A DNA stretch of 64,000 nucleotides from Octopus sinensis. Lineage: Eukaryota. The stretch covers positions 63,674,001 to 63,738,000 of the forward strand of contig NC_043001.1 in assembly GCF_006345805.1 (NCBI RefSeq). Direction: 5' to 3'. The notes beneath the pieces are model-generated. The model saw nothing but the letters and a program-made list of their open reading frames with translations, made no database searches and was not told where the DNA came from. Shown here one piece after another: positions 6,686 to 53,324 of the stretch; position 1 is the first letter of the stretch; the number at the start of each line of letters is the position of its first letter. The translations under genes and the position numbers were made by a program.

Positions 6686-7470
6686 TCTCTTCTCTGAAGA
6701 AAAGTCCTTCCCAGTGAGTTATAATTATTAAATATACAAAATTATCATTTCAATTAACGGGAAGCATCTACATGGTCGTTCTGTCTGCTACAAAATAGCC
6801 GCCCAAATTCCCTCTAATCCAATTTTATCGTCTACTCGTTATACCTCTTAATACACAACGACGGAAAAGGCGCATGGCCAGAACACCTTTGATCATGGTC
6901 CACCCGAGTATAACTGACCTGATTCAACTTTCCAGGATTTGTTTTAAAATAAGTTCTCCTGCCTTCGTTTTTTTTTTCTTTTTAACCAGTTTCGTGGTTG
7001 TTCTGTTATTCTTCTTACTCTAATACTGTTTAAATAGTAACAAATCTGAGTCTAGTATTCTGGTTAATTTGTTTAAACGTACTTTAAGCAACAGAAAAAT
7101 ACTGAACTCTAAAGCTTAATAAATCGCACATTCCTCGTGCCTTTGATATAGTTTGGAGCTTTACTTTTTAAGTATCTATGTTCATTAACTTATTTGCTGC
7201 CGCCGCGACTGCTCCGACGTGAGTTAATGACCCCGCTAATGATAATACCAACTTCCAGTCCATAGGAAACCTGTTGTAACCATATTCAGCAAAACTGCTA
7301 CCAAGAATACCATCTAAAGTATGAGAAATACCATTTAACTACCCCTTTCACCAAATACTTCGATTAAAAAGAAAGTAAAAAGTTACCGAGTTATATAAAG
7401 GTGTGCTCTACATCACAACATTACCTTATACACACATACACACACACACACTCACACACACATATATATG

Positions 7471-7545
<75 letters not shown>

Positions 7546-7548
7546 ATA

Positions 7549-8228
7549 TTGATTTAATTTAATCAGGTTAGTTTACCATTAAACAGTAGATGAAACGGTG
7601 CATCGTATAAGAAATTACAGGGTAAATGTTTTTTAATTTTCTCCTGGTTTACGGAATTGATGTTATTTTGCGGTTGAAGCGTTTGGCTGTTATTTCTAGT
7701 GGGTGAATGGCCTATTAGGGCCGTTCCTTGATTGTGATGTTGAACTTAAAAATGGTATATGACTATTTAATTTTTTCCCACTAGGCCGCTGGTGGCAAAA
7801 AAATTCTACAAAATTTTTTTTGCCACCCTATATTGATTAATTATGAATTTTCTGGTTAATTCCGTAATGGAATCGGCGGCTTATATTTATTTGCTGCCGA
7901 TAAATTTGGCGCGAGTGCGATGATTTGAAAATTTTAGGTCAGATATTGCCGAGGCAGGGACGGGAATGCCTCGTGAAAAATATCTGTTCCGACTTGGCTA
8001 TTTCTTACTGATGAATCTAAGGGCCTATAGTAGATTGGCTTGATTTAATTTAATCAGGTTAGTTTACCATTAAACAGTAGATGAAACGGTGCATCGTATA
8101 AGAAATTACAGGGTAAATGTTTTTTAATTTTCTCCTGGTTTACGGAATTGATGTTATTTTGCGGTTGAAGCGTTTGGCTGTTATTTCTAGTGGGTGAATG
8201 GCCTATTATGGCCGTTCCTTGATTGTGA

Positions 8229-8230
<2 letters not shown>
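7549..8230 (+). mobile_element. HHR-bearing non-coding retroelement, family A (491-nt monomer, ~1.4 copies, in (TA)n)
   Basis: 7549-7739 is repeated almost identically at 8040-8230. (TA)n on both sides; internal hammerhead. Confidence 0.8.
8001..8105 (+). ncRNA. Type I hammerhead ribozyme with enlarged stem II (family A)
   Basis: tttctta-CTGATGA-atcta..(insert)..tagat-GAAAC-ggtgcatc-GTA-taagaaa. Perfect 7-bp stem I. Confidence 0.85.
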
Positions 8231-8279
<49 letters not shown>

Positions 8280-8390
8280 CGTCACCGTGACCGACCAGGC
8301 TATCAGATGTTGCTACACATCGCTGGTCACAATGCGCTTCGCATTGTTTTAGCTTTCAAATGACGCCACCCCACTGGCTAAGCGGACAGG

Positions 8391-8493
<103 letters not shown>

Positions 8494-14786: not shown

Positions 14787-16762
14787 TTCCTGCTTCCAAA
14801 AAGTGAAGAAACAAATGAACCAAAAAACGATAGACCCATAACCTGCTTAACAACTATGTATAAAATGTTAACATCTGTCCTGACGGAATATACCTATAGT
14901 TTTTTAACAGACAGCAGCATATTGCCTAATGAACAGAAAGGATGTAAACGTGGATCCTATGGTTGTAAAGATCAGCTACTCATCAATAAGATGATCTTAG
15001 AAGATTGTCACAAACGACACAAAAAATTGTCAATAGCCTGGATAGACTATAAAAAGACTTATGATTGCCTACCACACAACTAGATTAAGAAATGCCTGCA
15101 AATGTATAAAATAGTACCTACTCTGCGAAACCTTTTGTCTGTAAGTATGAGATCATGGAGAACTACACTAACTTTGAACAGTGACAATGAATCTCTAAAT
15201 GCTGGCGATGTAAAAATTTAATGTGGCATTTTCCAGGGTGACTCACTATCACCACTTCTCTTTTGTTTAGCCTTAATACCTCTCTCAAAATTGCTCAATG
15301 ACGCGCAGTACGGATATAAAATGTTTGATAACAATATAAATCATCTCATTTACATGGATGATTTAAAGCTCTTTGCAAAAAATGACCAACAACTCAAGGG
15401 CTTACTAGCGATTGTTAAACAATTTAGTGATTACATCAGGATGCAATTTGGCCTCGATAAATGTGCAAAAGCTACCTTTATCAAAGGAAAAATGACAGAA
15501 AAATCTGACGTTAACATTGACCAGCAGCATGTCATAAAAGAGTTGGACTCAGCGGAGAGCTACAAGTACCTAGGGGTAATTGAAGGGGACGGAATAAGGC
15601 ACTCGGTGATGAAGGAACGGATCAGGAGAGAATGTTATCGCAGAGTAAGAGCAATACTCAAGACAGAGCTGAATGCGAGAAACAGGATCGAAGCGATCAA
15701 TGCTTTAGCCATACCAGTCGTGCCTTACAGTTTCAATATCGTTAACTGAACAATTACTGAAATATGTAATCTTGACAGAAAAATACGAAAACTGTTGACA
15801 ATGCATAGAATGCACCACCCTAAGGCAGATATAGAACGACTTTATCTGCCAAGAAAAGAGAAAGGCCGTGGACTTTTACAACTTGCAATAACAATGAAGA
15901 TTGCTACAATTGGCCTAGACACCTACCTGAAAAACTCTGAGGACTGGATGTTAAAACTTTTCTCAAAACATGAAAACAAGAAAGCATCATACTCAGTAAC
16001 AAAACAGGCTACGGAATATCTAAGTGAAATCCGAATACAACAAATTCCGGAATTAGACATAAAAGAAACAAGCACAGAAAAAGCTAAGCGCATGAAAACC
16101 CGTGCTAAAACTACTGCCTTAGATATTCTGAGTGATAAATGGCAAGAAAAACCTCTCAATGGCAAATACCCAAAGAGAGCGAATAATGCCGATGTTGACA
16201 AAGCCCTGACCCATCAATGGCTAATGGCCTCTGGCTTAAAATCTGAAACAGAAGGGTTTGTCATAGCAGCTCAGGATCAATGCCTACCTTCAAGGAACTA
16301 ACAGGCCAACATATTAAAGAACGGCAGTAGCCCAACATGTCGTGTATGTCAACAACAAAATGAAACCATTGATCATGTTGTCTCCAAGTGCAGTCTTTTT
16401 GCGCCTACAGAGTATCTCAACAGGCATGATAGAGCTGCACAATATATTCACTGGGTAATTTGCAAAAACCTGGACTTGCCCCATGAAAATAACTGGTGGG
16501 AACACAAACTACCTCCAGTGCTTGAAAATGACCGCATCTCACTCCTCTGGAACTTCACCACTCAAACTGACAGAAAGATAGATGCAAATAGGCCAGACAT
16601 CATATCGAAAGACTTCAGACAAAGAACATGCCTCCTTATTGATATGACTGTCCCAATCGATATATCTGTCAAGACCTACCAAAAACTGAGCAAATATAAA
16701 GATCTTGAAATAGAAATCAGCAAAATGTGGAACCAGAAGACTAAAACAATACTTGTTGTCAG
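14783..16762 (+). mobile_element. R4/Dong-type non-LTR retrotransposon (RT plus restriction-like endonuclease), truncated at both ends
   Basis: RPITCL, EQKGC, WIDYKK, GIFQGDSLSP, YMDDLK, YKYLG, CRVC..ETIDHVVSKC, RHD, RPDI..D..K..KY. In-frame stops. Begins directly at (TAA)n. Confidence 0.92.
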
Positions 16763-19700
16763 CACTTCCGTGTCTGTAAAGCTCCCCGGTACCACTGCCA
16801 GGTCAGGGATTTCTGGAAATTATCTAAAGGCCACGGCCCAGAAGTCCTCCGGAAAAAAAAACCAGTTAGTTGATCTCTCCCGACACCCGGAGTCTCCCTG
16901 AGTACGTCGTCGCTCTTTTCCTCCAGGTGGAGATTGTCGTGGATAGAACTTTTCCCCCATAGAACTCTATAGTGGAACTTCCACCGACCACATTGTCGAC
17001 ACTCCAGATGCCATGCACCCTTTCTTGCTCTACGCTTGATCCAGGACTGTAGTTCTGTCAATGAGACGAGCTGCGGAAAATCCTGTGTGACAAACGGTGA
17101 CCACACCTGCTCGTGGCCGCCGTTTGTCATACAGGATTTTCCGCACTAGTGATGACGCTGCCTCAACGCGTGTCTGCTCTTGATAGCAGATGAACCGTCT
17201 GATGAACGGAACACGTCCCTTCCACAGAAAGCGGAAGAGCAAGCGCTCCAGCTTAATCAGCCACGAAGCAGAGCAAGGGACGACGGTCAGGTAGTAGTAG
17301 TAGATGACGGAAGCGATGTACGCATTTGCCACCTCCGCCGGACCTTCAAGGGTAGCTTCCTCTCTGCCCACTTCTGGGTGAGATTGGCCCCCCTGCTCGT
17401 CACCCCCCCCAGTTCTTGTTCACCTGGAAGTCCAGGCCGAACTAGATCCCAAAGCATTTTAACCGGTCCTTCCGTCCAGCGCCCTACAACGCTATCGGTT
17501 GGCACGGATCTGTCTCTCTAGGTGCAGAGATGCAGGCCCACCGAATTGTCCTGATTAAATTTTGCTGTTATCACCGCTTCGTATTCCCTTAAAGTAGCGC
17601 CGATCACCTCGATTTCCGACACTATTACGGTGACATCGTCTGCATATGCCGACACGAAACCTCCGTATCTTAGATCAAGCGGGATGCCCCTCGAAATATC
17701 CAACTTCCTAAGTAATGGCTTGAGAGCACAGAAGGGGAGAGAGTGCCAAACGATTCCGATAGGCGGCCGTCCACTTTGACCACCGAACAGATGTCGCTTA
17801 CATTGCAGCGATCCAGCCTCTGAAAACAGGTGTACAAGCTCTGAAAACAGAATCCTCTTGCCGCTGCGAGGACATCCTCCAAGTATTGATGGTCGACCCT
17901 GTCAAAAGCTTTCGATTGATCCAAATTGATCAGGGCCCCACCCATGCCAAGTTCCTTCCTTACTCTTTCTATGCTGTAGCGCATGGGGTGGAGATTGTCG
18001 TGGATAGAACTTTTTCGGGATTGTGCATGTCTGAGCGTCACCGACCGGCTTATCAACGACAAGGCCAAAATCTTATAATCTGCGTTATTGGCCTAAAATT
18101 ATCTAATTGGTCCCCCTTGTTCGGGTTCTTTTTCAGCAACACCATATGCCACGGCTCTCAGCACTGGGTATTCTCCCGTTCTGCTGCCAGTTGTGGTAGA
18201 CATCTGCCAAGAAATCTCCGAACATGTCTGGCATATAAAGATAAATCTGCAAGGGTAGACCATCCAGCCCTAGAGACTTCTCCCTTGTGAAGCTCGTCAT
18301 CGCGTCCCGTATGCCTTCGGCTGTTAGCATTTCGCAGAACTCCGTATCCCTGGCCGAAATCTACCGCCATTCCCGGCACACAGCGCGCCCCGAACAGTTC
18401 GGCGAATTGCCGCTGAAACTCCATACACATCTGCTTGGATTCGTGTAGCATACGCCCGTCCCCGGCCCGTCAAAGACCGAATTGTGGTTATGTTGCTACG
18501 TTGCACCTTTGCCACCAGGGCCCATCGAACAGCTCGTCTCCTCATGTCTTAGGGCATGCACCCTAGCTCTGACGACACAACCTTCATGCTTGGTATTGAA
18601 GAATTGATCAAGAGCCAATCTCACCGCCATCACGTCAGTCACAATGTCGCTCCTAAGCGCCACATCTAGCTTCCTATCTAGCTCTTTCTTTATCCTAGAT
18701 TCCTCTAAGGCTATTTCCTTACTAGATCCTACTGCCCCTACTCTAATAGTCCTCTTCAGGGCTATCCACCAACTGTTGTTGACGATTGTGCCTGCCAACT
18801 TCTGATGGACTAACTTGTTAACCTGGTTTCTGAATGCTTGACGCGCTGAGAAAGACACGTTCATCTTCCAGTGCCCGGGGCCCGGCCTGTGGACCTTATC
18901 TAGCTCGACCGTACAGATCACAAATTTGTGGCCTGTGTAGCCGACGAGTGAACAACTTATGCTACTTTTATCGACTGGCCTACAGAATATCCTATCTAAA
19001 TACGATCTGGAAGACCAGGTGTTGTTCGCCCATGTCCACATCGGCGCGTTCGGGAAGTCCAGTCGATACCTGTCAGCCAATTGGAAACGACTGAGCAGGT
19101 TTCTGAGGTTTTTGCACCCACCTCTCATATCGGCTAGCCCAACCTATCCAAGTGTGCATCCAAAATGGCGTTCCAATCGCCCACTAGAACTAAAGTGCGA
19201 GATGTCCCAAGGAAAACCTCCAAACGTCCTAAAGAAATCTGGCTTCCCCACCCCAGTTGGGCGACTGATCTGAAAGTACCACCTTCGCTGTTGTTCACAT
19301 CCAGGACCATCAGCATACCTTCCAGGTCTAGGAAGATCGTCCGTACCTCGATATCCAGGTTTTTACAAAACAGCACTACCACCCCACCCCCACCCATCAA
19401 TTCAGGCCGACTAAGAGATACGTAGATCTCGAAATCGTCAAAAGTGGGGACTAGATCGGATAATCCTGCTTTTGCTGACGGCTGTCACATCCCAAGATAG
19501 TGACCTAAGGTCGTTGAGCAAGCAACCCTGCTCCCAGGGCGACCCCAGGCCACGAATATTTATACTACCTCCACTTAAACATCCCCGAACAGAATTTAGA
19601 GAAGAAACAAAGAAGCGCCTACTTACCACTCGGATGTCACTGGAGGTCAGGTGGCTCAGTGTCCCTTTAAAAGCCTAATCGTGGTCTTTACAGTAGGGAT

Positions 19701-29811: not shown

Positions 29812-30187
29812 ATATATATATATTATATTATATATATATTATATATCACGTGATCACGTGACCGACCAGACCATCAGATGTTGCTACACATCGCTGGTCA
29901 CAATGCGTTCGCATTGTTTTAGCCTTAGAATGACGCCACCCCGCTGGCTAAGCGAGCAGGCCAACAGAAGAAAGAGTGGTGAAAGAGTACAGTGTTTGTC
30001 CCCCTAGCATTCCTTGACAACCGATGCTGGTGTGTTTATGTCCCCGTCACTTAGCGGTTCGGCAAAAGTGACCGATAGAATAAGTACTGGGCTTACAAAA
30101 GAATAAGTCCCGGGGTCGAGTTGCTCGATTAAAGGCGGTGCTCCAGCATGGCCGCAGTCAAAACTGAAACAAGTAAAAGAGTAAAGA

Positions 30188-30496: not shown

Positions 30497-30741
30497 ATAT
30501 ATTATATATTATAATATATATATATATATATTATATTAATATAATATATATATTATATATAATATATATATTATATATATATATATATATAAAATAAATA
30601 TAAGAGAGTGGTCACTATATGGCTCACTCTAGCACCAGTTAATCCAAAAGGTTTCAACCACAAAAATATGTTTCCCATGAAAGTCAGTACGATTGTTAGC
30701 TCACACGGACAGGGCAAATAAAAAATACAAAATACAGATTA

Positions 30742-30822
30742 TTTTGGGACAATTGTTTCGCTATTAATGAATTAAATGTATTTTACTTACAAAAAAATCC
30801 ACTTGTAGCTCGTCAGCCAAAA
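30742..30822 (-). ncRNA. Type I hammerhead ribozyme (family B)
   Basis: Minus strand: ttttgg-CTGACGA-gcta..tagc-GAAAC-aatt-GTC-ccaaaa. Confidence 0.85.
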
Positions 30823-31268
30823 CTATCTGGATGAAATCCACTCAATCACACGCCAGATTTTACCATAACGATAAATACGTGTGTGGTTCAATTGATTACA
30901 TCCGACGTTATAATTCAAATGCCCCAACTAACAGCGCGCCAACTTTCACGAAAACAAATACTGCATTTAGAAATAAATGCAGCATAATTATAATTAATTA
31001 ATAGGGTGAGAGAATTAGATACTAATTTAATAGTATATCTATTCAACACCAAGTGGCCTAGTGCTCCGAGAAACCTGGATTATTATAATATTTTATAATA
31101 TATTATAATTTTTACAAAATAAATATAAGAGAGTGGTCACTATATGGCTCACTCTAGCACCAGTTAATCCAAAAGTTTCAACCACAAAAATACATGTTTC
31201 CCATGAAAGTCAGTACGATTGTTAGCTCACACGGACAGGGCAAATAAAAAATAACAAAATACAGATTA

Positions 31269-31350
31269 TTTTGGGACAATTCTTTCGCTATTAATGAATT
31301 AAATGTAATTTTACTTACAAAAAAATCCACACGTAGCTCGTCAGCCAAAA
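31269..31350 (-). ncRNA. Type I hammerhead ribozyme (family B), stem III variant
   Basis: Same motif with GAAAG instead of GAAAC. Confidence 0.65.
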
Positions 31351-31453
31351 CTATCTGGATGAAATCCACGTCGGATGTAATCAATTGAACCACACGCGTA
31401 TTTATCGTTATGGTAAAATCTGGCGTGTGATTGAGTGGATTTCATCCAGATAG

Positions 31454-31535
31454 TTTTGGCTGACGAGCTACAAGTGGATTTTTTTGTAAGTAAAATTACA
31501 TTTAATTCATTAATAGCGAAACAATTGTCCCAAAA
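31454..31535 (+). ncRNA. Type I hammerhead ribozyme (family B)
   Basis: ttttgg-CTGACGA-gcta..tagc-GAAAC-aatt-GTC-ccaaaa; palindromic ACAATTGT stem III. Confidence 0.88.
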
Positions 31536-31828
31536 TAATCTGTATTTTGTTATTTTTATTTGCCCTGTCCGTGTGAGCTAACAATCGTACTGACTTTCAT
31601 GGGAAACATGTATTTTTGTGTGTTGAAACCTTTTGATTAACTGGTGCTAGAGTGAGCCATATAGTGACCACTCTCTTATATTTATTTTGTAAAAATATTA
31701 TAATATATTATAAAATATTATAATAATCCAGGTTTCTCGGAGCACTAGGCCACTTGGTGTTGAATAGATATACTATTAAATTAGTATCTAATTCTCTCAC
31801 CCTTATAATTAATTATATATATATATAT

Positions 31829-34518: not shown

Positions 34519-34610
34519 ATATATATATATATATATATATATTATATTATATACATATTATTATTATATATATATATAATATATATATATATATATAATA
34601 TATATATATA

Positions 34611-34911
34611 TGGCGCGAGTGCGATGATTTGAAAATTTTAGGTCAGATATTGCAGAGACAGTAGTGGAACTGCCTCGTGTAAATATCTGCCCCGATCTGG
34701 CTGACTTTACTGATGAATCTACCGGCCTATGGAAGATTAGCTTGATTTAATTTAATCAGGTTGATTTACCATTAAAGAATAGACGAAACGATGCATCGTA
34801 TAAAGTATTACAGGGTAAATGTTTTTTAAATTTTCTCCTGTTTACGGAATTAATTGTTTTGCGGTTGAAGCTTTGGCTGTTATTTCTAGTGGGTTGAATG
34901 GCCTATTATGC
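34611..34911 (+). mobile_element. Diverged partial copy of HHR element family A in (TA)n
   Basis: Aligns by eye to ~7907-8210. Confidence 0.85.
34704..34806 (+). ncRNA. Type I hammerhead ribozyme with enlarged stem II (family A)
   Basis: acttta-CTGATGA-atcta..tagac-GAAAC-gatgcatc-GTA-taaagt; perfect palindrome ACGATGCATCGT. Confidence 0.85.
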
Positions 34912-35104: not shown

Positions 35105-35301
35105 TATATATAAATATATATATATACATATATATATAATATATAGCATAATAGGCCATTCAACCCACTAGAAATAACAGCCAAAGCTTCAACCGCAAAA
35201 CAATATTAAAACAGTTTCGCCATGGGCTCTTAGGAGCACAGTTCGATTTGTTTTTTGCTCCGCCTCTGTTCTGTTTTTGTGTTTCCAACGGATTTCCTTT
35301 T

Positions 35302-35389
35302 TTCTTCCTGATGAGAAAGACACAATATGGTCCCATTATTCAATCGGATTTTGGTAATTTGTGCCTTTCGAAACACGTGTAGAATGAAA
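35302..35389 (+). ncRNA. Type I hammerhead ribozyme (family C)
   Basis: ttcttc-CTGATGA-gaaagacacaa..ttgtgcctttc-GAAAC-acgt-GTA-gaatgaa, followed by AATAAA. Confidence 0.8.
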
Positions 35390-35539
35390 TAAAACGATTT
35401 CTGTTCAATCTGCGTTCAGCTCCATTTCTTCAATTCACCAATAATGTTTTATATATATATATATATATATTATTTAATTATATATTATATATCTATATTA
35501 TATATATATAATATATATATATATTATATATTAGAATAT

Positions 35540-35602: not shown

Positions 35603-37129
35603 GAAAACTGAAGGAAGGTAAAATATGCCCCATTCATAAAGGAGGTAGCAGAGCGGAAGCCAAGAACTATAGACCTATCTCTCTGACCTCACACATCAGC
35701 AAGGTCATGGAACGAATAGTCAGAAGGAAGCTGATCACCTTTCTTGAAGAGAATGACTTGCTGCCCGACACCCAACATGGTTTCCGACCAGGGAAAATCT
35801 GTTTAACTCAGCTCCTACAACACTATGACTGGGTGCTGAAACGGCTGCTCAACCACTCAAATGTGGAAGTGATATATCTCGACTTTGCAAAGGCCTTTGA
35901 TAAAGTCGATCATGGAATGATATGTCACAAACTACGTGATCTCAACATAGTTGGAAAACTGGGAGAATGGCTTCATGACTTTCTGAAAGATAGAAGTCAG
36001 GTGGTAGTGGCCAATGGGGCCACTTCCATTAACACGCAAATAGTGAGTGGTGTTCCGCAGGGCACTGTTCTGGGACCACTACTGTTCATAATGGCCCTTT
36101 CAGACATGCCCTCAGCCACGCAGAGAGCAACGATCACAAGTTATGCAGATGATACAAAAGTTTCACAGGCAATACAGAACCCTGAGGACACTAAACACCT
36201 GCAATGTGAGCTAGACAAAATATACAAGTGGGCCGAAAAGAATAGCATGCAGTTCAATGCTGAAAAGTTTCAAGCTCTATACTATCAGCATGCAAAACTA
36301 AATGCAATACCCAATGAATACACTGGACCCGGAGGAATAGCAATCCCAGAGGCACAATCAGTGCGTGACCTAGGTATTTACATGAGTGATGACGCGACCT
36401 TTCGTGTACATGTTGCTAAATTGGCAATGAAATGTAGACGACTGGCCGGATGGATCCTCAGAACCTTTAGAACAAGAAACCATGATGGTCCTCTGGAGGA
36501 CACTTGTCCTAAGCCACTTTGACTACTGCTCTCAGTTATGGTCACCATCCAGTGTCAAGTTGATCGCAGAGCTCGAGGCGATCCAACGTAGCTACACGAA
36601 GAAGATAGCTTCTATGCAGAATGTAAGCTACTGGGAAAGACTCAAGAGATTAAAACTATATTCCCTGGAGCGTAGGCGGGAAAGATATGCCATAATATAC
36701 ATCTGGAAGATCCTGGAGGGACGTGTCCTGAACTTTGGCATCGAGAGTTACGCAAATGCCAGAACTGGGCGCCACTGCGTGGTGCCTAGGACTCCAAACT
36801 TGCCATCAAGATGTAGGACAAGATTCTGTGATAGCCTGGGCTTCCGAGGCCCACAGCTCTTCAATATCCTACCGAAGAACCTGAGAGACCTGCATGGGGT
36901 GGATGCAGATGTCTTTAAAATGAAGCTGGATCTCTTCCTGTCAGGTGTCCCAGATGAACCAACTTCACGGCAGGAGGTGCAGATGAGGGCAGCTGCATCG
37001 AACTCTCTCATGCACCAATGGCAGTTGCTAGAAAGCTTTCGTGAAGTGAAACCAAGTAGCAACACCAAATGGCGGTGCCCCAGCATGGCCACAGCTCATA
37101 AGCTGAAACTAGAATCAATCAATCAATCA
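35603..37129 (+). mobile_element. 5'-truncated CR1-group LINE (RT, one frameshift near 36477) with (ATCA)n tail, inserted in (TA)n
   Basis: NYRPISLTS, QHGFR, YLDFAKAFDKVDH, SGVPQGTVLGPLLF, YADDTK, VRDLGI, LERRR. Confidence 0.95.
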
Positions 37130-37488
37130 TATATATATATATATATATATATTATATTATATATATATATATATTATATTACATATAATATTATATATAT
37201 TATATATATATTATATTATATATATATATATATATTATATATATATATATTTTTTGTACTTGTTTCAGTCATTTGACTGCGGCCATGCTGGAGCACCGCC
37301 TTTAGAGTGGTGAAAGAGTACAGCAGGGATCACCACCATCCCCTGCCAGAGCCTCGTGGAGCTTTTAGGTGTTTTCGCTCAATAAACACACACAACGCCC
37401 GGTCTGGAATCGAAACCGCGATCCTCCGACCGCGAGACCGCTGCCATAACCACTGGGCCATATATATTATATTATATATAATATATAT

Positions 37489-39608: not shown

Positions 39609-39733
39609 ATATATATATAATATATATATATATATAATATATAAAATATTATTAGAGACAAAACCACTATTTTGCAAAACAACAAGGAAAGACTTAATTA
39701 ATACATAAAATTTTAATAAATAGTCAAAAAAAG

Positions 39734-39776
39734 CCACTACAATTGTTTCTTGTCTTGATCGACAATCTTCAGGTGG
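39734..39776 (-). ncRNA. Minimal type I hammerhead (family E)
   Basis: Reverse complement of ccac-CTGAAGA-ttgtc-gatcaa-gacaa-GAAAC-aatt-GTA-gtgg. Confidence 0.9.
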
Positions 39777-39815
39777 ACTTCCAATAAGTCAGTTTCAAAT
39801 TATGAACTGAAAAGT

Positions 39816-39858
39816 CCACCTGAAGATTGTCGATCAAGACAAGAAACAATTGTAGTGG
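39816..39858 (+). ncRNA. Minimal type I hammerhead (family E)
   Basis: ccac-CTGAAGA-ttgtc-gatcaa-gacaa-GAAAC-aatt-GTA-gtgg; perfect stems I and II, palindromic stem III. Confidence 0.92.
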
Positions 39859-40116
39859 CGGTTTTTTTGACTATTTATTAAAATTTTATGTATTGATAAG
39901 TCTTTCTTGTTTGTTTTGCAAACTAGTGGTTTTGTCTCTAATAATATTTTATAATATTTTACTATAAAATTGGATTTAATCCTAAATCTGATTTTTTCCC
40001 TGTAAATTTGGATTATTCTTCTAATATTTATTATTTAATATAATATATATATATATATATAATATATATAATATATATATATATATATAATATATATATC
40101 ATATATATATATATAT

Positions 40117-40165
<49 letters not shown>

Positions 40166-40415
40166 TATATATATATATATGATAATATATTATAATATAT
40201 ATATAATATATATATATTATATATATATTATATAATAATTGTATACATATAGATTATATTATATATATATATTATATTATATATATATAATATAATTATA
40301 TATAATATATATATATTATATATATATATATAATATATAATATATTAATATATATATATAAATATATATATATATTATATATTATATATATATATTATAT
40401 ATATATAAATATATA

Positions 40416-40451
<36 letters not shown>

Positions 40452-40533
40452 TATATATATTGTATATATATATATATAATATATATATTTATATATATAT
40501 AATATATATATATATAATATATATATATATATA

Positions 40534-40570
<37 letters not shown>

Positions 40571-40734
40571 ATAATATATATATATATTAATATATATATA
40601 TATATATATAATATAATATAAATATTATATCTATAATATATAAAAATTATTAGAGACAAAACCACTATTTTGCAAAACAAACAAGGAAAGACTTAATTAA
40701 TACATAAAATTTTAATAAATAGTCAAAAAAACCG

Positions 40735-40777
40735 CCACTACAATTGTTTCTTGTCTTGATCGACAATCTTCAGGTGG
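40735..40777 (-). ncRNA. Minimal type I hammerhead (family E, duplicate)
   Basis: Identical motif in the direct duplicate ~1001 bp downstream. Confidence 0.85.
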
Positions 40778-40816
40778 ACTTCCAATAAGTCAGTTTCAAA
40801 TTATGAAACTGAAAGT

Positions 40817-40859
40817 CCACCTGAAGATTGTCGATCAAGACAAGAAACAATTGTAGTGG
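40817..40859 (+). ncRNA. Minimal type I hammerhead (family E, duplicate)
   Basis: Identical motif. Confidence 0.85.
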
Positions 40860-41051
40860 CGGTTTTTTTGACTATTTATTAAAATTTTATGTATTGATTA
40901 AGTCTTTCCTTGTTTGTTTTGCAAACTAGTGGTTTTGTCTCTAATAATATTTTATAATATTTTACTATAAAATTGGATTTAATCTAAATCTGATTTTTTC
41001 CCTGTAAATTTGGATTTATTCCCTAATATTTATTATTTATATAATATATAT

Positions 41052-51330: not shown

Positions 51331-51855
51331 TTAATACAATGCTACATCGTTGTAAGCATCGTCTAAATCTTTAATGAGTTGGTTATATTTATCCTTCTCT
51401 TCGTTCAATGAGACTTCCATTTTCTCCAGATCTTCTTCCAGTTTGGTCACCGTTCGTTCGGCGTTTGTTGCCCTCAACTCGGCTTCCTTCAGCTTCTCCT
51501 GGTTTGTTACTTCTTCGGTCTTTTTCACAGACAAAGCTTCATCACTTCTCTCAAGTTGTAACTCCAACATTTGTATCCTCCTTTGCAAGTTCTGGATCTC
51601 TGTATCACACTCGCTAACTCTTTCTTCGGCGTAGTGCATCATGTCCTGGGCTTTAGACAGGTCATTGTTCACAGTATCCAGTTCTTTCTCCATGTTAGAA
51701 TATTTCTTTTGTAACCAGTTCAGTTCCTCATCCAAGCGGCCTCTTTCGGTCTCGGTGGACTTCAGTTTTTCCTCAATGACCTCCACCTTGTCCATAGCAG
51801 TTTCTTTGGCCACTCTGATGGCCTGGACTTTTTTCAGATATGTGTCACGATCCAT
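51331..51855 (-). CDS. Short intronless tropomyosin-like coiled-coil protein (174 aa)
   Basis: KKVQAIR start, LQRRIQMLELQLERS (cf. LNRRIQLLEEDLER), KLKEAELRATNAERTVTKLE (cf. [20 protein letters not shown]). GCCATGG Kozak context; uninterrupted ORF. Confidence 0.85.
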   Translation of the reverse strand: MDRDTYLKKVQAIRVAKETAMDKVEVIEEKLKSTETERGRLDEELNWLQKKYSNMEKELDTVNNDLSKAQDMMHYAEERVSECDTEIQNLQRRIQMLELQLERSDEALSVKKTEEVTNQEKLKEAELRATNAERTVTKLEEDLEKMEVSLNEEKDKYNQLIKDLDDAYNDVALY

Positions 51856-53324
51856 GGCTAAAGTTTACTGTCAATCGGAGAAGAAAGAAAGTTTATTAAA
51901 AATTCCACTCGAAGGAACCGGTTCGAGTTGAGAAGAAACGAAGAAAACGCACTCCGCTCTCTGGCTGCAGAAATATGGAACTGAGAGAATTGTCTTCCGA
52001 CTGGCAGTACACCTGCTACTACTCAGCTGTCTTCACCCCTTCCTTCCTCTCAAGCATTACCTCCTCCCTTATCTCTTTTACTGTACATCACCCCACCGCC
52101 ACTCATGTAGATAAATGAGGGTGAGGGGGTACGAAGAGTTCTCAACCCCATCCCTTCTTCTATTAGTTAATATGGTTAATACTAAGGTAGAGGCAGCAGT
52201 GGCGGTGAAACTCATTACTCATTTATTTATTTATTTAGTCTTACAGCGAAGTTTCAGTTTTTATTTAATTATTTATTATTATTATTATTTCTTTTTTTTT
52301 TGTATTTCCATATTTTTATTGGTGAAACAAACCTCTTTACTTTGTTCCGCAACTATTCACCCATACATACACACTCTCTTTCTCTGCCCCCTCTCTTTCA
52401 TTCTCCCTCTCAAATCACGCGCGCGCACATGCACAAACACACATTTATGTAAACAGAGAGCACTCTTTAAAAGGATGACGAGGTGAGATGGCTGGGTATA
52501 TGTATATCTAGACGCACCCGTACATATACATTCATAAAACATACATACATACATACATACATATGTGTGTGTATCTATCTATCTATTTTATATGTGTGTG
52601 TGTGTATTATGGGAAGGGGTTTATTCATTAGTTTGGGTGAGAGGCAGTGAGAGAGAATAAAGGCGTGTACGTCTGGAGACGTGATGATGTAAAAGGTGGA
52701 GGGTGGGATTAAAATATTGGCAACAGTCAGTTGCAGTTATCTCCCTTTAATCAATTTTCAGCTAAAACCAAACTTATTATTATTTTTTTTTCGTTAAATT
52801 TACATTCTTGGAGTCGAAGAATTATTTGAACATTGGACAAAATGTCTTCTGGCATTTGTTTGCTTTTTACGTTCTGAATTCACTTCCTATGGAGGGCATC
52901 TTAGCCTTTCACCCCTAAAGTGTTGATAGATTAAACTCGTTAGTAGCTAAGCACTGGGGGTTAATTTAAACGTTATTAATGGGCTACCTTGTTACAGTAG
53001 GACCTAACTATTTCCCATGTAGTAGGGTTCCGGCTACAGGTGAAGTGGTGTACAGGGCCAGATACACTGCAAGACACCATTATTATCAGTAGAACCGTCA
53101 ATTATTGTCAACACATCATTTTCACACACACACACGCACATACACATCCCCCCGCACAACATAAAGCTTATTATTCACCGCATATACTGACACCAACACA
53201 CATACATGTTATCAATCGTACACACACACACACGTACACAGGTACAAAGACATACTATCATTCACACATACATACACATCATAAAGCGGGCCACATTATT
53301 CAGACTGTATCACACACACATGTA

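Follow-up and report, generated by a model that had tools for sequence, protein, structure and literature searches.

A dispersed hammerhead repeat family of Octopus sinensis that is probably copied as a non-autonomous Penelope-like element

RESULTS

The insertion and its hammerhead motif

We analyzed a 64,000-nt stretch of the Octopus sinensis genome (NCBI RefSeq assembly GCF_006345805.1, contig NC_043001.1, positions 63,674,001 to 63,738,000), referred to here as the window, whose own positions are used throughout. At 7549-8230 on the + strand, a 682-nt insertion of a repeat that we call family A interrupts a (TA)n target, the left part of which is 7462-7548 and the right part 8231-8276. The insertion comprises 1.39 periods of a 491-nt noncoding unit, and its first 191 nt (7549-7739) recur at a spacing of 491 nt (8040-8230) with a single substitution (7718 G, 8209 T). 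It starts within the extension hairpin of stem II of a hammerhead motif (T7549 can be assigned to either target or element), such that only the 3′ half of the motif is present at 7549-7615 (GAAA, stem III and GUA, preceded by part of stem II and followed by a stem I strand); a complete type I motif, predicted to be cut at 8098/8099, occupies 8000-8106. The unit between the two predicted cleavage positions (7608-8098; 36.7% GC) is the predicted circular monomer, and we numbered it from phase 1 to phase 491, phase 1 being 7608, the first base after a cut. The longest ATG open reading frame (ORF) in this copy is 26 aa on the + strand and 11 aa on the − strand (55 aa in one array of the family). 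The unit folds at −149.5 kcal/mol (z = −5.4), which was equalled by 0 of 100 shuffles, and the computed fold contains an extra hairpin at 7941-7985. Pol III A and B box and TATA consensus patterns had no match within the unit. Measurement thus bore out what a sequence-only reading of the window had described, namely, a 491-nt monomer present about 1.4 times, an opening of ~190 nt repeated with one substitution, a start inside stem II, one complete hammerhead, no ORF and a hairpin at about 7941-7985. Its remark that the monomer is long for an animal retrozyme did not hold up, since 491 nt, although above the ~170 to 400 nt given for retrozyme units in the cited part of one source (PMC7229834), falls within the 51 to 972 bp given in that of another (bioRxiv 10.64898/2026.07.22.740005).

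The interval 7695-7844 forms a predicted initiation module, consisting of a closing stem, a hairpin, a short end site (phase ~131, position 7738), a second hairpin and a long end site (phase ~234-237, positions 7841-7844). The second copy of the repeated segment, 8040-8230, stops at the short site, which is one of two fixed 3′ ends of the family, and the 5′ end of the insertion is joined directly to the TA target. The window copy is therefore a true single arm joined to target, with one complete and one half ribozyme.

The motif at 8000-8106 has an 8-bp stem I, CUGAUGA, a branched 68-nt stem II, GAAA and then GUA before the predicted cut; its stem III has 4 bp and a palindromic UGCA loop. Because an Rfam search of the window yielded nothing that reached the gathering score, and 7500-8300 matched none of the hammerhead families even at E ≤ 10, the ribozyme call depends on motif, pairing and covariation. 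The core CUGANGA is intact in 127 of 130 matched copies. For covariation, we used 18 distinct variants drawn from the commoner haplotypes (18 of 230 distinct strings). Their catalytic core is constant except for N7, three of the eight stem I pairs have both bases substituted and stem III is paired in all cells, which, given that the sequences are related, are not independent events. Pairing drops to 28 to 44% in slid controls. The first pair of stem II is unpaired or not Watson-Crick in 13 of the 18 variants. A second cut, at 7607/7608, could in principle occur if the half motif 7549-7615 paired with 8000-8019, the strand that carries CUGAUGA: each of the 17 pairs imposed on the fold is standard or G-U, and the fold constrained in this manner lies 11.5 kcal/mol above the unconstrained one.

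Other elements in the window

The window also carries other hammerhead families. Family B (30600-31817), the second, has motifs at 31460-31529 (+) and 30816-30748 (−) and the same TA-flanked head-to-head build as family A. The two share a closing stem and a short motif as well as a hairpin that precedes the long end, and the layout of the predicted initiation module recurs in the window copy of family B. At locus L045, a piece of family B stands directly upstream of a family A arm. The fourth hammerhead family, F, occupies 39640-41040 with four motifs (39738-40855) on both strands; it is two-armed with two ends and is present twice in a duplicated AT-rich block, which may be an assembly duplication. 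A repeat of ~120 nt, its copies 89% identical, occurs at 8277-8394, beside the insertion after the TA run, and at 29846-29964; it stands outside family A.

The stretch 17000-19143 is presumably a broken LINE-type retrotransposon fragment. Two further such fragments, at 15083-16901 and 35605-37276, both have Pfam RVT_1 matches. An uninterrupted tropomyosin-like frame of 176 aa at 51331-51864 (−) (Pfam PF00261, E = 1.5e-20) is possibly an intronless gene or a retrocopy.

Family A has variable 5′ ends and two fixed 3′ ends

A similarity query against the 2.72-Gb genome gave 164 family A matches, 94 to 100% identical, at 39 loci (39 loci scored out of 900 candidates). Searches for exact junctions with the target found 459 + 91 = 550 short-end junctions and 535 long-end junctions, reversed-pattern controls giving 0, so that there are at least 550 insertions genome-wide. 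On contig C1, the two junction lists held 47 and 45 entries with 15 in common, which yields a rough estimate of ~1,800 loci. Near-identical family A words also occur in sequencing runs of three organisms. Family A is a set of many young, protein-free copies. A plain satellite was ruled out by the dispersed loci with identical ends.

Subfamilies that are 84 to 94% identical retain both end positions, even though their short-end sequence differs. One diverged copy in the window, at 34604-34910 (+), is 87 to 90% identical and has compensatory stem I changes. A short inverted piece of the same diverged subfamily, at 35147-35209 (−), is joined without TA to hammerhead family E. This head-to-head arrangement (35147-35447, with the family E motif at 35308-35381) is also seen at locus L228, and at L231 a family A arm stands head-to-head, again without TA, with a further TA-ending repeat.

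The 5′ ends of family A copies fall at all phases, whereas the 3′ ends lie at phase ~131 or at phase ~232-241 and run into (TA)n, which was reached by 69 of the 70 arm ends examined (the exception is the + arm of L031). The sequence-only reading had proposed aligning the copies for permuted start points; on alignment, the 5′ ends proved variable, but the 3′ ends have two constant positions ~106 nt apart, an interval that corresponds to a “tail.” Because permutation is confined to the 5′ ends, and both constant 3′ positions are of the type seen in Penelope-like elements (PLEs), we classify family A as a non-autonomous PLE-type element.

Insertions usually consist of two arms joined head-to-head. 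Among the 39 loci picked by similarity, 32 had two such arms, 31 of them with one short and one long end and 0 pairing like with like. We then have, from the short-junction lists for contigs C1 to C3, a set of 100 loci (93 of the first 100 in the main list plus 7 from the second); a second arm was present in 81, and in 78 of these it ends at phase 232-241. Median arm lengths in this set were 358 and 320 nt, and several seemingly single arms are accompanied by a short remnant of the long end. Some members form tandem arrays that contain two or more complete ribozymes, the longest having 17 units; a unit is preceded either by a further unit or by an arm in inverted orientation, and in no case by an ORF. 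The assembly contains homopolymer errors and collapsed or duplicated loci. An assembly palindrome artifact was rejected as the source of the arms, which differ in fixed end site and in flanks.

Both arms are probably copied from one template

Arms differ by 0.72% within a locus versus 3.4% between loci. At 58 testable two-arm loci, 55 pairs differ at 0 or 1 informative sites and 42 are identical (4.8 expected), and only 1 differs at three or more. Both arms are thus likely to be copied from one template. They appear to be primed separately, as the two arms are not nested at 23 of 76 two-arm loci, and yet coupled, with stops no more than 10 nt apart in RNA coordinates at 17 of the 76 (2.1 by permutation). 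Arms of different families are joined at 2 or 3 of 98 loci, which means that two RNAs are sometimes used.

The junction spanning the cleavage site is intact in 168 of 176 copies. Arm stops from −4 to +30 nt around the cut were in excess on the first pass (24 versus 6.8 expected, or 25 versus 7.0 with a slightly different refinement) and numbered 8 versus 5.6 on later passes. With a narrower window of −4 to 15, first-pass stops numbered 11 versus 4.7 (P = 0.01), exact phases being blurred by homopolymer errors. Correspondingly, arms crossed the junction at 114 of 139 first encounters and at 99 of 107 later ones (Fisher P = 0.023), and at L105, L109 and L256 arms start within 1 to 2 nt of the cut. 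An excess of stops confined to the first pass fits a mixture of linear cut RNA and closed circles, but RNA structure that stalls the enzyme only before the RNA is hybridized could look similar.

The arm-nesting and coincident-stop (n = 76), crossing and first-pass or later-pass stop counts leave out L113 and L114 (triplicates of L112) and L224 and L262 (where the array exceeds the fetched stretch); arm-difference and private-allele counts further leave out L109, L124 and L227. The haplotype test (n = 58) omits L113, L114, L224, L262, L124, L033, L053 and the window copy.

A candidate helper element and sequencing data

A genome search for GIY-YIG nucleases gave 5,029 candidates, of which 150 were scored. 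PLEs with reverse transcriptase (RT) and GIY-YIG domains are abundant in the genome; they end in (TA)n and have two ends ~40 nt apart. In some of those scored, the nuclease is preceded by a CxxC motif, which is a mark of the Neptune type (PMC8557442). None of the RT plus GIY-YIG ORFs belongs to family A, which is therefore not an autonomous PLE. No unit-like sequence was present at 79 other GIY-YIG or PLE loci from this scoring (150 of 5,029 candidates), and a search with the motif shared by families A and B, varied such that neither family itself would match, led, at 29 of 30 inspected loci (75 matches), to family A variants and at 1 to an unrelated match. At the PLE loci labeled L076, inspection by eye suggests a 3′ hammerhead-like motif with U and A replacing C3 and G8 of the core, a replacement described for some PLEs (PMC4209133).

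When PLE protein was compared with 108 family A loci by tblastn, an adjoining PLE piece was found only at L124, in the opposite arrangement; the other matches are separate insertions by their position. L124 (1441-4594) comprises a family A arm, an inverted 106-nt family A piece and then the 1.3-kb 3′ end of a Neptune-like PLE. This PLE family is 91 to 96% identical, has two ends 44 nt apart and is represented by a 3,869-nt contig in sequencing run X7. With one chimera and a loosely similar end motif, it is the best candidate for the mobilizer of family A, which we take as a weak hint.

None of the data sets listed as holding the unit is on record as RNA. Contigs of runs that we guessed to be RNA cover the unit. 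The summed depth of the unit was about tenfold that of the adjoining PLE fragment in the three guessed RNA runs and likewise in a large run that is probably genomic; with ratios so similar, depth cannot rank expression and speaks neither for nor against it.

DISCUSSION

Proposed mode of copying

Copy number, the fixed and variable ends, arm pairing, shared haplotypes, stop statistics and covariation were all established directly on genomic copies. Our explanation for them, to which we assign a probability of about 0.68, is that family A is a non-autonomous PLE (a non-LTR retrozyme) for which a PLE enzyme, acting in trans, copies a single RNA, which is probably often a circle. The parts of this reading differ in strength: that family A is a young, non-autonomous, PLE-type hammerhead retrozyme seems to us very likely, insertion by two-site priming on one RNA is likely and a circle as a frequent template is somewhat favored. 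As we picture the cycle, tandem copies would be transcribed, and the hammerhead would excise 491-nt units, some of which would be ligated to circles. A dimer of a PLE RT-GIY-YIG enzyme would then bind the module 90 to 240 nt past the cut and nick both strands of a TA repeat. Each nick would prime reverse transcription, starting from the short site (phase ~131) in one case and from the long site (phase ~237) in the other. Both runs would proceed upstream, around the circle if present, and the two cDNA ends would be joined head-to-head. Where the second arm is missing, the first would be joined straight to the target, as may have happened with the window copy. Transcription, cleavage, circles, the enzyme and its identity are the components of this cycle that we infer.

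The sequence-only reading had likened the insertion to a reverse-transcribed circular RNA. The near-identical dispersed arrays, the lack of an ORF, the variable 5′ ends and the arms that cross the junction several times sustain its view of a retrozyme; the circular RNA is something that we infer. It had also offered a retrozyme and PLE pLTR formation as alternatives, and both apply: the two are not exclusive, given the pair of constant, PLE-type 3′ ends. As family A has no PLE ORF and no sequence partner among the PLEs examined, “retrozyme” and “PLE pLTR-like” coincide here.

Alternatives

Two-site PLE priming might instead act on linear, uncut or partly cut multimers, with arrays lengthened after insertion by unequal crossover and with no circle involved; we judge this unlikely, although part of the evidence leans its way. 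Among 21 arms with four or more near-full units, 10 carry an allele in some units only, with higher-order periods (period 4 at L262, period 3 at L039 and roughly period 2 at L040 and L042) or block switches (L099 and L231), and a monomer circle alone does not explain such heterogeneous or periodic arms. Locus-private alleles, at sites covered by three or more units, are found in all units (8), some units (11) or one unit (103). The coincident stops of the two arms at 17 of 76 loci would also fit a shared linear 5′ end. A lizard PLE studied in vitro uses uncleaved RNA as its main substrate and can dispense with hammerhead cleavage (PMC11167929), and a preprint prefers local tandem amplification (bioRxiv 10.64898/2026.07.22.740005). 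Against this, a cut probability per junction should produce an equal stop excess everywhere, whereas the excess is seen on the first pass only. The other 11 long arms, of up to 8 units, lack unit-level heterogeneity, the two arms of a locus are of one haplotype and crossover after insertion would not easily homogenize inverted arms.

That a single cDNA folds back and primes itself, with the endonuclease then setting the second end, is very improbable as a general account. Shared haplotypes would follow trivially from it, near-perfect junction palindromes occur at 17 of 76 loci and self-priming was suggested earlier for PLE palindromes (PMC3846280). The 23 of 76 two-arm loci with non-nested arms, however, could not have arisen from a single folded-back cDNA; some pairs are fully disjoint, e.g., at L105 (phases 1-131 and 145-237). 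In addition, L228 and L231 join arms of two families head-to-head, and both sites act as RT starts in vitro (PMC11167929). Self-priming as the sole route is excluded; it may apply at a subset of loci.

That the copies are 5′-truncated ends (solo pLTRs) of an undiscovered autonomous PLE is hardly credible: every terminal feature is PLE-like, half of the matched Xenopus families resemble PLE termini (24 of 57 matched known elements, with 21 of 22 elements being PLEs; bioRxiv 10.64898/2026.07.22.740005) and our PLE survey scored 150 of 5,029 candidates, but what precedes a unit is never an ORF, in arrays that reach 17 units, and the single adjoining PLE piece among the 108 loci, at L124, is oppositely arranged. 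The sequence-only reading had named, as the finding that would count against a circular RNA, that all copies be fixed-end pLTRs attached to PLE ORFs. This is not what the copies show: a PLE fragment adjoins 1 of the 100 junction-picked loci, again L124.

Copying in trans from one RNA, our preferred reading, allows a more specific and tentative version, which we hold to be possible rather than probable. The two RTs of one Penelope dimer would roll around the same circular RNA by strand displacement, each from its own fixed site. First-pass stops would then reflect cleavage in vivo, arrays of period 2 to 4 would stem from circular dimers to tetramers and cross-family arms would mean that a single machinery serves several retrozyme families together with a Neptune-like PLE.

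Comparison with known systems

How retrozymes are copied and how the tandem and inverted insertions of PLEs originate are stated to be open questions (bioRxiv 10.64898/2026.07.22.740005, PMC8557442, PMC11167929, PMC7229834). Family A leads to predictions that could be counted in an in vitro PLE assay: each insertion should have a short and a long start, its two arms should come from the same template, and run-off at the cut should occur on linear RNA and be absent on circles. It also offers a natural 491-nt substrate with a definable loading module. PLE-dependent retrozymes, inverted copies, a one-sided tail, microsatellite bias and two internal start sites are already described in the literature. 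In the parts of the retrozyme and PLE sources cited here, we found no strict short/long pairing, shared-template test or pass-dependent stops, and an incomplete literature search turned up nothing on cephalopod retrozymes, although preprint supplements may list further families.

Like metazoan non-LTR retrozymes, family A consists of noncoding, low-GC (36.7%, i.e., <45%), highly self-paired tandem units with a type I hammerhead each; it likewise forms dimers to multimers and coexists with PLEs, which have been proposed as mobilizer or origin (PMC7229834; bioRxiv 10.64898/2026.07.22.740005). It differs from them in its branched 68-nt stem II, 4-bp stem III and lack of a G10.1-C11.1 pair. Circular RNA has been shown for metazoan retrozymes (same two sources), whereas for family A the circle is predicted from genomic copies, and in Xenopus only one of nine tested retrozymes cleaved (bioRxiv 10.64898/2026.07.22.740005). 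Fixed two-site 3′ ends, head-to-head arms and TA targeting, as found in family A, are not described for retrozymes in the cited portions of PMC7229834, in which “inverted” occurs 0 times, and bioRxiv 10.64898/2026.07.22.740005.

These features are those of EN+ PLEs of the Neptune/Poseidon type, with which family A shares partial tandems, an inverted, 5′-truncated head-to-head copy, a “tail” at one end, microsatellite or AT-rich targets and a hammerhead upstream of two internal start sites (PMC8557442, PMC3846280, PMC11167929, PMC4209133). For the lizard PLE, in vitro work revealed two internal start sites, equivalent to the “tail,” with cleavage and extension of both strands, and the same source predicts a dimer (PMC11167929). 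Family A departs from EN+ PLEs in having no ORF, a tail of ~106 nt rather than 30 to 40 nt, arms that can both span several units and no sequence link to the local PLEs among those examined. In being a non-autonomous PLE derivative it resembles MRC1 of Chlamys, which has pLTRs and multicopy head-to-tail insertions, but MRC1-type elements generally resemble their partners at the 3′ end (PMC8557442), a similarity that family A does not show to the PLEs examined. Family A clearly represents a kind of element that is already known and, as an element, is ordinary.
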